Shown here piece by piece: positions 39,741 to 63,667 of a stretch of DNA of 64,000 nt. The stretch's first letter is position 1. Each line of letters starts with the position of its first letter. Source of the stretch: Escherichia phage vB_EcoM-RPN226. The stretch is taken from sequence record OL770073.2, one strand, 5' to 3'. Made by a program: the position numbers and the translations under genes. The notes under the pieces were generated by a model. The model saw only the letters and a program-made list of their open reading frames with translations, was not told where the DNA came from and ran no database searches.

Positions 39741-39813
39741 TGGGAATTAGCCAAGTTGGTAAGGCATAGCACTTTGACTGCTAGATGCAAAGGTTCGAGT
39801 CCTTTATTCCCAG
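39741..39813 (+). tRNA. tRNA-Gln (anticodon TTG)
   Basis: acceptor stem TGGGAAT/ATTCCCA, T-arm GGTTCGAGTCC, anticodon loop CTTTGAC read by hand. Confidence 0.8.
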
Positions 39814-39814
39814 C

Positions 39815-39901
39815 GCGAGAATGGTCAAATTGGTAAAGGCACAGCACTTAAAATGCTGCGGAATGATTTCCTTGTGGGTTCGAGTCCCACTTCTCGTACC
39901 A
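39815..39901 (+). tRNA. tRNA-Leu (anticodon TAA)
   Basis: acceptor GCGAGAA/TTCTCGT, long variable arm, T-arm GGTTCGAGTCC, encoded CCA; forms a dimer unit with tRNA-Gln. Confidence 0.8.
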
Positions 39902-39907
39902 AAGTTT

Positions 39908-39979
<72 letters not shown>

Positions 39980-39992
39980 AAATTTAATTTAC

Positions 39993-40065
39993 TCCGTGTA
40001 GCTCAGTTTGGTAGAGCGTCTGCTTTGGGAGCAGAATGTCGCAGGTTCAAATCCTGCCGCGGAGA
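39993..40065 (+). tRNA. tRNA-Pro (anticodon TGG)
   Basis: D-arm TAGCTCAGTTTGGTAGAGC, anticodon loop TTTGGGA, T-arm GGTTCAAATCC. Confidence 0.8.
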
Positions 40066-40067
40066 CT

Positions 40068-40154
40068 GGAGGCGTGGCAGAGTGGTTTAATGCACCGGTC
40101 TTGAAAACCGGCAGTCGCTCCGGCGACTCATAGGTTCAAATCCTATCGCCTCCG
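40068..40154 (+). tRNA. tRNA-Ser (anticodon TGA)
   Basis: acceptor GGAGGCG/CGCCTCC, long variable arm, anticodon loop CTTGAAA, T-arm GGTTCAAATCC. Confidence 0.8.
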
Positions 40155-40161
40155 TAATTTC

Positions 40162-40234
40162 GCTGATTTAGCTCAGTAGGTAGAGCAACTCACTTGTAAT
40201 GAGGATGTCGGCGGTTCGATTCCGTCAATCAGCA
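40162..40234 (+). tRNA. tRNA-Thr (anticodon TGT)
   Basis: acceptor GCTGATT/AATCAGC, D-arm TAGCTCAGTAGGTAGAGC, anticodon loop CTTGTAA, T-arm GGTTCGATTCC. Confidence 0.8.
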
Positions 40235-40240
40235 TATCAA

Positions 40241-40312
40241 GGCCCTGTAGCTGGAAGGTTCAAGCAAGCGACTCATAATCGCCAGATGGTGGTTCAATTC
40301 CACCCAGGGCCA
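40241..40312 (+). tRNA. tRNA with CAT anticodon (Ile by T4 analogy, would be called Met by anticodon alone)
   Basis: acceptor GGCCCTG/CAGGGCC, anticodon loop CTCATAA, T-arm GGTTCAATTCC. Confidence 0.7.
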
Positions 40313-40319
40313 TATTTTG

Positions 40320-40360
40320 GGAACATAAATACTCTTAGAAATAGGAGATATTTATGTTCC
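40320..40360 (+). promoter_or_regulatory. 12-bp perfect hairpin sequestering segB start codon; SD in loop
   Basis: GGAACATAAATA (40320-40331) pairs with TATTTATGTTCC (40349-40360); ATG 40354-40356 in 3' arm; loop carries AGGAGA; 5' arm contains CATAAATA, a near-late-promoter. Confidence 0.6.
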
Positions 40361-41019
40361 ATTACACTTATAAAATAACAAATAAAATTAATAATAAAAT
40401 CTATATAGGCGCTCATTCTACCGAAAATTTAGATGATGGATATATGGGTTCTGGTAAATTATTAAAAAGAGCCCAAGACAAGTATGGTATAGAAAATTTC
40501 TCTAAAGAAATATTAGAGTTCTTTGACGATAAAACCTCTATGTTTGAGTCAGAAAAGAATATTGTGACTGAAGAGTTTTTAAAGCGCCCTGATGTTTATA
40601 ATTTGAAATTAGGTGGTGAAGGTGGTTGGGACCATTTAAACACTAAAGAATATTTGGATAAAAAGAAAGAAGCTTCCTTAAAAGGGGCTGCTGCTTTTAA
40701 AACCAGATTTGAGAACGACCCAGACCTTAAAGAAAAATATCGTAAAATGGGTTCAGAAAGGTTTAAACAGCTTTGGGATAATCCTAAGTATAGAGAGAAA
40801 TTTTTAAATACTAAATCTTTCTTGGGTAAGACCCATACTCCTGAAACTATTAATAAAATGAAAGAATCTCACGCCAAAAATAAACACCAACAAGGCGAAA
40901 AGAATTCCCAATTTGGTATGATGTGGATTCATTCATTAGATGAAAAAGTTTCTAAACGTATTAAGAAAACTGACCCAATTCCAGAAGGATGGTTTAAAGG
41001 TCGAAAAATGAAATTTTAA
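40354..41019 (+). CDS. segB: GIY-YIG homing endonuclease SegB-like, embedded in tRNA cluster
   Basis: 221 aa, GIY-YIG motifs YTYKITN...KIYIGAH; start codon sits in the 3' arm of a 12-bp perfect hairpin. Confidence 0.8.
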   Translation: MFHYTYKITNKINNKIYIGAHSTENLDDGYMGSGKLLKRAQDKYGIENFSKEILEFFDDKTSMFESEKNIVTEEFLKRPDVYNLKLGGEGGWDHLNTKEYLDKKKEASLKGAAAFKTRFENDPDLKEKYRKMGSERFKQLWDNPKYREKFLNTKSFLGKTHTPETINKMKESHAKNKHQQGEKNSQFGMMWIHSLDEKVSKRIKKTDPIPEGWFKGRKMKF

Positions 41020-41022
41020 TTA

Positions 41023-41099
<77 letters not shown>

Positions 41100-41415
41100 G
41101 ACAAGAAACCGGGTCGCTACCGGTAAGTCGTCGGACTGATGTTCCCTGAGTAAGGAATTGTGTTAATAAATCTTTATGATTTGTTGATGCCCTCTTACAT
41201 CACAGCAGAAACGGCGCTCAGAATTATCGATTCGAGGAAATATCTTTGCCGTAAGCCGAGTAGCGTTTTTGACGGAACGTTCGGATATGGTCGAGATATG
41301 GCCTTTTAAAAATATTGAGTAGCGTCAACTACTTAATAACCGGGTTCGAATCCCGGCGTTTCGTACAAACACTTGCCTTAGCAGGTGGAACCCCGACAAG
41401 GTTGCCGCAAGGCTT
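41100..41415 (+). ncRNA. small stable RNA region (T4 species 1/2, rnaC/rnaD-like, tRNA-like 3' element)
   Basis: about 320 nt non-coding between tRNA-Arg and a rho-independent terminator; contains tRNA-like T-arm CCGGGTTCGAATCCCGG; boundaries uncertain. Confidence 0.4.
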
Positions 41416-41443
41416 AGCCCCAGCCGAAAGGTTGGGGCTTTTT
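41416..41443 (+). terminator. rho-independent terminator after stable-RNA region
   Basis: AGCCCCAGCC-GAAA-GGTTGGGGCT hairpin plus TTTT. Confidence 0.7.
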
Positions 41444-41445
41444 AG

Positions 41446-41453
41446 TATAAATA
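41446..41453 (+). promoter_or_regulatory. late promoter (TATAAATA) for CTS-protein gene at 41493
   Basis: TATAAATA directly after terminator 41416-41443. Confidence 0.5.
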
Positions 41454-41492
41454 TAGTAGTGTATTAAATCACGAATTAAAACAGGAAATAAG

Positions 41493-41966
41493 ATGAAATC
41501 ATATGCTCAATTTTTAAATGAAGTGGCGTTAAATGAAGCATCCGCTTCAGATGTTCGCGCTGTAGCAACTGCTGCTATTAAAGCTGGTAAATATTCTTAT
41601 AAAGATGCTTCTGATGAATCCCGGTACAAGTTCTACGACGATATGAGAGCTGAAGGCTTTGTGGGTAACTATGTTACCACCGCCTGGAAAAGCCTGGTTG
41701 CTACTGGTGCGGCTTTCGAAAAACCTTCCGGTAAACCTGCTCCTAAAGCAGATCCTAAAGCTGCACAAGAAAAAAATATTGTTAAAGGAATTATCGCTAA
41801 ATATGAAGCTATCCTTAAAGAGCTTTTAGTAATCAAAACCGAAGGCCAAAAGTTAGCCCGTGCTTATAGTTTCAAAGACAACCCACATGCTCATGACCTA
41901 GAGTATGTTGAAGACATCCAAAAAATTATTAAAGACCGCATTTGGTCTGCTAAACAAATCAAATAA
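41493..41966 (+). CDS. capsid-targeted internal-protein-like protein
   Basis: 157 aa, N-terminal CTS MKSYAQFLNEVALNEA, flanked by two copies of the same terminator hairpin and preceded by TATAAATA. Confidence 0.55.
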   Translation: MKSYAQFLNEVALNEASASDVRAVATAAIKAGKYSYKDASDESRYKFYDDMRAEGFVGNYVTTAWKSLVATGAAFEKPSGKPAPKADPKAAQEKNIVKGIIAKYEAILKELLVIKTEGQKLARAYSFKDNPHAHDLEYVEDIQKIIKDRIWSAKQIK

Positions 41967-41972
41967 CATTTT

Positions 41973-42000
41973 AGCCCCGACCGAAAGGTTGGGGCTTTTT
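41973..42000 (+). terminator. rho-independent terminator after CTS-protein gene (near-duplicate of 41416 terminator)
   Basis: AGCCCCGACC-GAAA-GGTTGGGGCT hairpin plus TTTTT. Confidence 0.7.
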
Positions 42001-62929: not shown

Positions 62930-63469
62930 CAATTGAAAAAGAAATTGAAGGATTGATTCATAAAACTAATAAAGACCTTTTAAACGAGAATGCTAATAAA
63001 GATTCTCGTGTTTTTCCAACTCAACGGGACCTTATGGCTGGTATTGTGTCTAAACACATTGCCAAAAATATGGTCCCGTCTTTTATTATGAAAGCGCATG
63101 AAAGCGGAATTATTCATTTCCATGATATTGATTATTCCCCTGCTCTTCCATTTACTAATTGCTGTTTAGTAGATTTAAAAGGAATGCTTGAGAACGGATT
63201 TAAGCTCGGTAATGCACAGATTGAAACTCCTAAATCAATCGGTGTTGCTACTGCAATTATGGCACAAATTACTGCACAGGTTGCTTCCCATCAATATGGC
63301 GGAACGACTTTTGCGAATGTAGATAAAGTACTTTCTCCTTATGTTAAACGCACCTATGCAAAACATATTGAGGACGCAGAAAAATGGCAAATCGCTGATG
63401 CGTTGAATTATGCCCAATCTAAAACAGAAAAAGATGTATACGATGCATTCCAAGCTTATGAGTTAACGT
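62926..63469 (+). CDS. nrdD: anaerobic ribonucleotide reductase NrdD, exon 1 (interrupted by group I intron)
   Basis: ATGA overlap with gene 49; reading frame continues into intron sequence; exon/intron junction position approximate. Confidence 0.75.
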
Positions 63470-63667
63470 AAGTCAAGCTCATGTAAAATCTGCCTAAAAC
63501 GGGAAACTCTCACTGAGACAATCCGTTGCTAAATCAGCAGTAGCTGTAAATGCCCAACGACTATCCCTGATGAATGTAAGGGAGTAGGGTCAAGCGACCC
63601 GAAACGGCAGACAACTCTAAGAGTTGAAGATATAGTCTGAACTGCATGGTGACATGTAGCTGTTTAT

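Follow-up and report, generated by a model that had tools for sequence, protein, structure and literature searches.

The small stable RNAs C and D of bacteriophage T4 were described in the 1970s, and it is with them that we compare the interval 41100-41415 of a 64,000-nucleotide (nt) stretch of Escherichia phage vB_EcoM-RPN226 (OL770073.2), hereafter the window, whose numbering is used throughout. In T4-infected cells, stable RNAs of about 140 nt for rnaC (PMC9697503) and of about 120 nt for rnaD (PMC9697503, PMC3014915) were reported, and both RNAC and RNAD were placed among the late RNAs and described as 'of yet unknown functions' (PMC9697503). The initial annotation of the window, made from the letters alone, had ascribed the interval to these two RNAs and had named the lack of a stable transcript as the observation that would speak against it; for T4, such a transcript is documented by the northern blot validation of RNAC (PMC9697503), and one of the two oligonucleotides for the probe template of that blot is identical to 41227-41284 of the window. 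Its remark that the function of the RNAs is still unknown agrees with the published descriptions (PMC3014915, PMC9697503, PMC12685909). In addition, evolution of a T4-like phage on the host ECOR34 gave rise to a convergent single-nucleotide polymorphism (SNP) in its rnaD region (PMC12685909). Here we present the evidence that assigns the interval to rnaD and rnaC, a comparative structure model in which rnaC is predicted to be tRNA-shaped, and the functions that such a structure may allow.

Counterparts of T4 rnaD and rnaC follow tRNA-Arg

A megablast search with 41090-41450 against 50,697 phage records retrieved 759 matching records, almost all from T4-like phages of Escherichia, Shigella, Yersinia, Salmonella and their relatives. 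The top match was RB33 (KM607001, 98% identity), whose record lists 'rnaD, species II RNA' and 'rnaC' directly after tRNA-Arg. By annotation transfer from RB33 through pairwise alignment, rnaD (T4 species 2 RNA, 121 nt; L001:1512-1632 in RB33) was placed at 41101-41221 and rnaC (T4 species 1 RNA, 139 nt; L001:1638-1776 in RB33) at 41227-41365, both on the plus strand, as are all of their elements described below. The T4 record (NC_000866) gives rnaD ('small, stable RNA; species 2 RNA') at 71053-71171 and rnaC ('species 1 RNA') at 70908-71046, with the gene order tRNA-Arg, rnaD, rnaC and then e.8 being the same as in the window. T4 and the window are about 95% identical over the interval, terminator included. 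The window rnaC aligns gap-free with 2 mismatches to that of RB33 and 1 to that of T4, and the window rnaD has 3 mismatches to that of RB33, while T4 rnaD departs mainly in the central hairpin. The likeness to T4 thus comprises the order after tRNA-Arg, the lengths (139 nt for rnaC; 121 versus 119 nt for rnaD) and the same terminator. Judged from these annotations, identities and gene order, the interval can be taken with near certainty to encode the T4-type small stable RNAs rnaD and rnaC, as the initial annotation had supposed. As a genome feature the two RNAs are already known, being annotated in T4 and RB33, so that this part of the work is a rediscovery. GenBank labels over rnaC and rnaD are inconsistent, with 'hypothetical protein', 'tRNA-OTHER', 'tRNA-Lys' or no label at all, and few records name rnaC or rnaD.

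The interval spans exactly from the end of tRNA-Arg (41099) to the start of the terminator (41416-41444), in agreement with the initial annotation, which had described about 320 nt without a credible open reading frame (ORF) between tRNA-Arg and a strong terminator. The ORFs that overlap it are short and start with codons other than ATG, i.e. one of 49 amino acids (aa) with a GTG start (41160-41309), one of 50 aa with a TTG start (41315-41467), and minus-strand ones of 24-34 aa. T4 departs from the window by indels of +1 and −2 at about 41141 and 41170, in or beside the 49-aa ORF, which would therefore be frameshifted. Across the phages, substitutions were pair-compensating and not codon-like, and the centre of rnaD was swapped for unrelated hairpins in T2, OE5505, JS98 and PTK. 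Compared with shuffled sequences, both RNAs folded much better (z = −4.6 for rnaC and −2.9 for rnaD). A protein-coding interval, as many GenBank 'hypothetical protein' entries imply, would accord with the presence of short ORFs and their annotation in many deposited records; against the small size and weak starts of these ORFs (24-50 aa, GTG or TTG), the frame-breaking indels of T4, the compensation of pairs by variation and the wholesale swap of the rnaD central hairpin in T2 and JS98, it was rejected and retains a negligible probability.

Covariation defines a tRNA-like four-way junction for rnaC

The comparative model of rnaC was built on an alignment of 19 distinct sequences from at least eight genera, comprising Tequatrovirus, Gaprivervirus (VR7), Kagamiyamavirus (EcS1), Moonvirus (KM16), Karamvirus (Pet-CM3-4, fGh-Ecl01 and Entb_43), Tegunavirus (fHe-Yen9-01), Kanagawavirus (PEi20), the Klebsiella phages MY02 and Clarke_MM3, and IMG/VR contigs. 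RNAalifold together with an explicit pair count yielded a tRNA-like four-way junction with 46 pairs. Standard pairing was found in 92.8% of the cells over these pairs, versus 36-46% when the partners were slid by 1-3 columns; changes on both sides occurred in 27 of the 46 pairs, and none of 500 shuffles reached any of the five measures computed. We consider the secondary structure as modelled, which is derived from sequence comparison, to be highly probable.

The predicted tRNA-like body extends over 41228-41364 and is followed by a tail ACA (41365-41367). Its acceptor stem is a 7-base-pair (bp) helix, CGAUUCG/CGUUUCG (41228-41234 with 41357-41363), that includes tandem U.U mismatches. At the third pair, 9 sequences have A-U and 10 have G-C, which confirms the stem, and in the Yersinia phages U-A and C-G pairs stand where the window has the tandem U.U mismatches. 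At the position of the D-arm stands a long arm of 71 nt (41235-41305), which consists of four helices, opens with a 3-bp junction helix and has compensatory changes in 17 of its 24 pairs. A single-stranded, A-rich linker of 7-9 nt lies 3′ of the long arm and leads to arm 3 at the position of the anticodon arm (41313-41338), in which a 10-bp stem with 7 compensatory pairs carries the 6-nt loop CGUCAA (41323-41328). After a spacer of one base (41339) comes the T-arm CCGGG-UUCGAAU-CCCGG (41340-41356), with two of five pairs covarying and a conserved T-loop. The initial annotation had noticed a tRNA-like T-arm in the interval; the motif, CCGGGTTCGAATCCCGG at 41340-41356, is indeed there and single in the window even at 2 mismatches, with none of 100 shuffles matching, and the claim is refined in that the T-arm is that of rnaC, which appears tRNA-like throughout, while rnaD is not tRNA-like. 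The 3′ part of rnaC (41357-41367), defined by conservation in the 19 sequences, comprises the 3′ strand of the acceptor stem, the discriminator U (41364) and the tail. G-U-N-C-A-A was found at the 3′ end in all 19 sequences, with the discriminator U and C-A-A invariant, and N is A in the T4-type RNAs (ACA), U in the Yersinia phages (UCA) and C in the Klebsiella phages (CCA). The invariance of C-A-A after N implies that the encoded tail seems to matter. Taken together, rnaC is predicted to be tRNA-shaped as a whole, with a canonical T-arm on which the acceptor stem stacks.

At its apex the long arm carries the loop UUGACG (loop 1, 41269-41274), which is exactly complementary to the loop CGUCAA of arm 3 (loop 2). 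All six pairs of this loop-loop contact can be formed in 19 of 19 sequences. The two loops have changed jointly on two independent occasions, to UUGGCG/CGCCAA in the Klebsiella phages and, in the Yersinia phages, to UUGAUG/CAUCAA. The arm lengths are constant in all 19 sequences (70-71 nt for the long arm and 26 nt for arm 3), even though the long arms of the PEi20, fGh-Ecl01 and Klebsiella types are only 34-39% identical to that of the window; fixed lengths at such an identity are consistent with a constraint on geometry, of the kind that a closed loop-loop contact would impose. A 6-bp kissing interaction in rnaC is therefore put forward as probable, and the pairing of arm to arm would close the body into a compact unit. 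TAR-TAR* and ColE1 RNA I/II are loop-loop kissing complexes that likewise engage hairpin loops of 6-7 nt with full Watson-Crick pairing; rnaC would differ from them in having both loops in one molecule and at one junction, which gives a closed architecture.

Other pairings were tried and rejected. An internal acceptor of rnaC, ACGGAACG (41272-41279) with CGUUUCGU (41357-41364), forms 8 perfect pairs in the window; it is broken in EcS1, KM16, Pet-CM3-4 and PEi20 by a G-to-A change in one strand and a U-to-C change in the other and was discarded for that reason, the same U-to-C change being compensating in the 5′-terminal acceptor stem. A pairing of the 3′ GAAACG of rnaD with the 3′ CGUUUC of rnaC displayed no covariation, and CGUUCC occurs in rnaC where rnaD has AAAUACGG.

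Comparison with tRNA and tmRNA and predicted processing

Features common to rnaC and a canonical tRNA are the four-way junction, the 7-bp acceptor stem, the 5-bp T-stem with the loop UUCGAAU, the discriminator, the NCA/CCA tail and the location in a tRNA cluster; acceptor stem, T-arm and T-loop consensus are thus all found in rnaC, and rnaD stands outside this pattern. Unlike a tRNA, rnaC is 139 nt long, lacks a 7-nt anticodon loop, has a 71-nt arm in place of the D-arm, and has junction linkers of 0, 7-9 and 1 nt instead of 2, 1 and about 5. Neither ARAGORN nor the Rfam tRNA model called a cloverleaf in 41100-41415. A permissive Rfam search returned a lone tRNA-Sec match (17 bits, E = 1.3), which rests on the internal acceptor refuted by covariation. 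The covariance model of rnaC in turn matches ordinary tRNAs end to end, weakly (13-25 bits).

The tRNA-like domain of transfer-messenger RNA (tmRNA) also resembles rnaC, in that an acceptor and T-arm 'top half' sits on a large non-tRNA body held by tertiary pairings. A tmRNA is processed in the manner of a tRNA, as rnaC would be by inference. The G3.U70 pair is the alanine identity element and a hallmark of tmRNA. Unlike tmRNA, rnaC has no G3.U70, no tag ORF and no series of pseudoknots, and is much smaller; the pair 3:70 is A-U or G-C in 19 of 19 sequences and never G3.U70, and ARAGORN found no tmRNA in the window.

The acceptor/T-arm stack, the T-loop, the base 5′ of the predicted rnaC start (U or A) and the tRNA neighbours lying flush with the RNA fit 5′ cleavage by RNase P and 3′ trimming of the tRNA type, and such processing of the RNAs is, in our judgement, somewhat favoured. 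In the scheme that we propose, rnaC and rnaD would be transcribed together with the tRNA cluster up to the terminator at 41416-41444, the 5′ end of rnaC would be released by RNase P, and an endonuclease would cut behind the upstream CCA, with 3′ exonucleases and CCA repair acting next; the stability of the RNAs would come from the placement of their ends in tRNA-like helices. The span 41228-41367 would measure 140 nt, which matches the length reportedly obtained in the original RNA sequencing.

rnaC is widespread among T4-like phages

The rnaC portion alone is conserved far beyond Tequatrovirus, as determined by sensitive blastn, and occurs in about 800 phage records from at least eight T4-like genera, mostly wedged between tRNA genes. 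It lies flush between tRNA-Phe and tRNA-Trp in EcS1 and between tRNA-Trp and tRNA-Gly in Pet-CM3-4, fGh-Ecl01 and Entb_43. The initial annotation had proposed a covariance-model search: in Rfam 15, on 41000-41500, only tRNA-Arg passed the gathering threshold and even matches with E up to 10 were chance ones, so that rnaC and rnaD fell into no family, while the covariance model built here from the rnaC alignment (R1) scored the window rnaC at 165.6 bits and found a single copy in the window. When 185,579 genomes of bacteria and archaea were scanned with a pattern of the rnaC T-arm and acceptor, two matches appeared, neither of which was confirmed by the covariance model, and no cellular rnaC homologue is therefore recognized; blastn with divergent rnaC queries retrieved no lineage outside the T4-like phages of enterobacteria. 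As far as these searches reach, the rnaC family appears to be confined to such phages. In related phages, more unannotated, well-folding spacers lie between tRNA genes, in three loci upstream of rnaC (L034, L035 and L037) and in EcS1 (L003:53-182 and 334-436); they may be additional small RNAs.

rnaD is a second conserved RNA with C-rich motifs

A match to rnaD was found in 734 phage records, and the RNA occurs in Tequatrovirus, Dhakavirus (JS98), Mosigvirus (PTK) and Gaprivervirus. Comparison of its relatives portrays rnaD as a separate conserved RNA with a 5′ hairpin and a long irregular hairpin closed by GUCGUCG/CGGCGC, in which C-rich motifs would be exposed. Formal covariation support for it is far weaker than for rnaC. 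The core has the order of a hairpin of variable sequence, AAG and helix P1. In the window the 5′ hairpin is ACCGG/CCGGU with the loop GUCGCUA (41108-41124), as judged from folds; its closing pair changes from A-U to G-C in 3 sequences, and at the corresponding site relatives have a hairpin whose sequence differs. The 5′ strand of P1, GUCGUCG (41127-41133), pairs with the 3′ strand CGGCGC (41212-41217), and the helix is invariant save for the innermost pair, which is G-C and becomes C-G in PEi20. Beside P1, a short helix P2 covaries by eye (CUG/CAG, GCCUG/CAGGC, UUG/CAA and UUUAAU/AUUAAA). The C-rich motif GUUCCCUG (41141-41148) lies in an internal loop opposite AUCACAG and is mostly unpaired in the predicted folds; it is invariant in all 16 sequences of the rnaD alignment and retained in short forms of other genera. 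The distal hairpin has a stem with 3-4 covarying pairs and a freely swapped interior, and many rnaD relatives have a second C-rich motif, GUUCCCUC or GUUCCUCC.

The short forms are unannotated rnaD-like RNAs of 75-100 nt with the same core, observed in KM16 (L004:271-352), Pet-CM3-4 (L005:240-332), PEi20 (L008:~340-415) and Klebsiella phages (MY02, L025:105-182). They are located within tRNA clusters and start directly after an annotated tRNA CCA end in Pet-CM3-4 and after a CCA-like end in KM16. Many of these short RNAs have both C-rich motifs, GUUCCCUG and GUUCCCUC, which resemble the anti-Shine-Dalgarno sequence.

P1 is followed by the base U in the window (GCGCUCAG) and by ACCA in T4. A CCA-ending, tRNA-like rnaD was considered and rejected, since the GGCGC-ACCA of T4 is replaced elsewhere by ACCG, ACAG, UCAG, AAUC, CGAA or AGGA and no T-arm is present. 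A P1 variant from RNAalifold, in which G-C and U-A pairs are formed with the tail, was valid within Tequatrovirus only and was likewise set aside.

Genomic neighbourhood of the two RNAs

The window is a segment of a T4-like phage genome with RB32 and RB33 as its nearest relatives. Seven tRNA genes lie at 39741-40312 (ARAGORN and Rfam), for Gln, Leu, Gly, Pro, Ser, Thr and a tRNA with the anticodon CAU, which is Ile in T4 naming (NC_000866). An ORF of 221 aa (40354-41019) separates tRNA-Ile(CAU) from tRNA-Arg and corresponds to segB, a GIY-YIG homing endonuclease annotated in T4 and RB33. The upstream neighbour of rnaD within the shared transcription unit, tRNA-Arg(UCU), lies at 41023-41099 on the plus strand with CCA encoded (ARAGORN; Rfam RF00005, 69 bits). 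This allele is very unlike that of T4, having in common with it only the anticodon loop and scattered bases, in contrast to the about 95% identity to T4 of the RNAs directly 3′ of it; its D-loop AAUUGUAUA lacks GG, and its T-loop UUAGAAU has A where C56 is usual.

The last 50 nt of the interval (41366-41415, plus strand) are a 3′ trailer beyond both annotated RNAs, with small hairpins predicted by folding at 41370-41387, 41389-41403 and 41404-41413. It is followed on the same strand by an intrinsic terminator (41416-41444, terminator scan), in which a 10-bp GC-rich stem with a GAAA loop (41416-41439) precedes UUUUU, i.e. the GC-rich hairpin and U tract of a rho-independent terminator, and which T4 has too. 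Trailer and terminator together fold better than shuffles (z = −4.2). Further downstream, an ORF of 157 aa (41493-41966) is flanked by near-identical terminator hairpins at 41416-41439 and 41973-41996; it is present in RB32 and RB33 and absent from T4. The arrangement suggests an insertion by which the rnaC terminator was duplicated. The differences of the window from T4 are minor and comprise, besides those within the RNAs, the allele of tRNA-Arg and the 157-aa ORF with its duplicated terminator. A group I intron at 63428-63659 lies close to the end of the window (Rfam RF00028, 103 bits).

Possible functions of rnaC and rnaD

Phage tRNAs can counter host defences, as T5 tRNAs do against PARIS, retron and PrrC-type nucleases. 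Like rnaC and rnaD, they are RNAs of tRNA clusters, dispensable on laboratory hosts and plausible host-range determinants; they replace cleaved host tRNAs, whereas rnaC could only be a decoy or competitor. Having no anticodon, rnaC would be unable to decode, and as a mimic of the tRNA 'top half' it would occupy or divert a protein that reads the acceptor and T-arm, with a host tRNA-targeting defence or toxin and a tRNA-processing or -modifying enzyme as candidate partners. Its function would be accessory and host-dependent, and a host-dependent role is supported by the convergent SNP in rnaD on ECOR34 (PMC12685909). Such a decoy function of rnaC, the one that we prefer, is possible, if doubtful. 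The specific form of it, i.e. rnaC as an anticodon-less, kissing-locked top-half mimic that acts as a decoy or inhibitor of a defence nuclease or of a toxin modifying 3′ ends, with rnaD as an accessory host-range RNA, must be called unlikely. For the identity of both RNAs, the structure and the inferred mode of action taken as a whole, we see a chance a little short of even.

Several observations weigh against the decoy proposal. T4 phages with deletions of the tRNA region are viable on laboratory hosts. In JS98 (L006 1197-1400) rnaC is missing exactly, with rnaD, the 3′ trailer and the terminator kept, and so rnaC is dispensable in at least one genus. The kissing contact could join two molecules and not one. 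The mature ends of rnaC and rnaD are annotation transfers, and the annotated 5′ end of rnaC (41227) sits one base upstream of that predicted from the acceptor stem. rnaD has no T-arm, and its CCA tail is unconserved outside T4, which limits the tRNA-mimic idea to rnaC. The searchable literature, which leaves older subscription papers outside, gave no function, partner or phenotype for either RNA; within the same scope no earlier description of the rnaC fold was found, and novelty of the model is therefore not claimed.

Under another explanation, the two RNAs would be passive passengers or cis modules of the tRNA operon, serving as processing spacers or 3′-end protection with no function in trans. 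Their constant placement in tRNA clusters, either internal or terminal, with ends that abut those of tRNAs, the genus-dependent position in the cluster, the JS98 arrangement and the absence of a reported phenotype in the searchable literature all conform to it. A spacer, however, needs no covarying 6-bp kiss, no fixed arms at 34-39% identity, no invariant discriminator and tail and no canonical T-loop; the fold of rnaC is the same beside Phe/Trp, Trp/Gly and rnaD/terminator, implying that rnaC is not tuned to a single neighbour; and the core motifs of rnaD are invariant across genera. We give this explanation a small but real chance. The invariance of the C-rich motif, which is mostly unpaired in independent folds and duplicated in T2-type and short forms, the late class of the RNAs (PMC9697503) and the convergent rnaD SNP during host adaptation (PMC12685909) would suit regulators that pair in trans, with rnaD as the stronger candidate and with GUUCCCUG and GUUCCCUC/GUUCCUCC facing the G-rich Shine-Dalgarno sequences of host or phage mRNAs late in infection. 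Yet no mRNA target has been identified, no target search having been made, the conserved loops of rnaC are consumed by their mutual pairing, and C-rich motifs may equally be protein-binding sites or a non-canonical internal loop, so that base-pairing regulation is regarded as improbable.

The acceptor stem, T-arm, invariant discriminator and NCA tail (CCA in the Klebsiella phages) are also what an aminoacylated RNA would have, and rnaC might then be a tmRNA-like rescue RNA or an amino-acid donor. Against this stand the absence of the G3.U70 pair, of an anticodon, of a tag reading frame and of any tmRNA call by ARAGORN, the encoded tail of the T4 type (ACA and not CCA) and a −1 base that is not conserved for pairing with the discriminator as in tRNA-His; to our knowledge, C1-G72 with U73 also fits no E. 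coli tRNA identity set. Charging of rnaC is accordingly very improbable. The probability left over by these explanations goes to something else.

The comparative model makes the old question of rnaC and rnaD function directly testable. What is added to the known feature is a covariation-backed structure of rnaC and a wider definition of the families, i.e. at least eight genera for rnaC and an rnaD family with C-rich motifs. If the decoy reading were true, T4's two oldest orphan RNAs would turn out to be counter-defence factors made of RNA.

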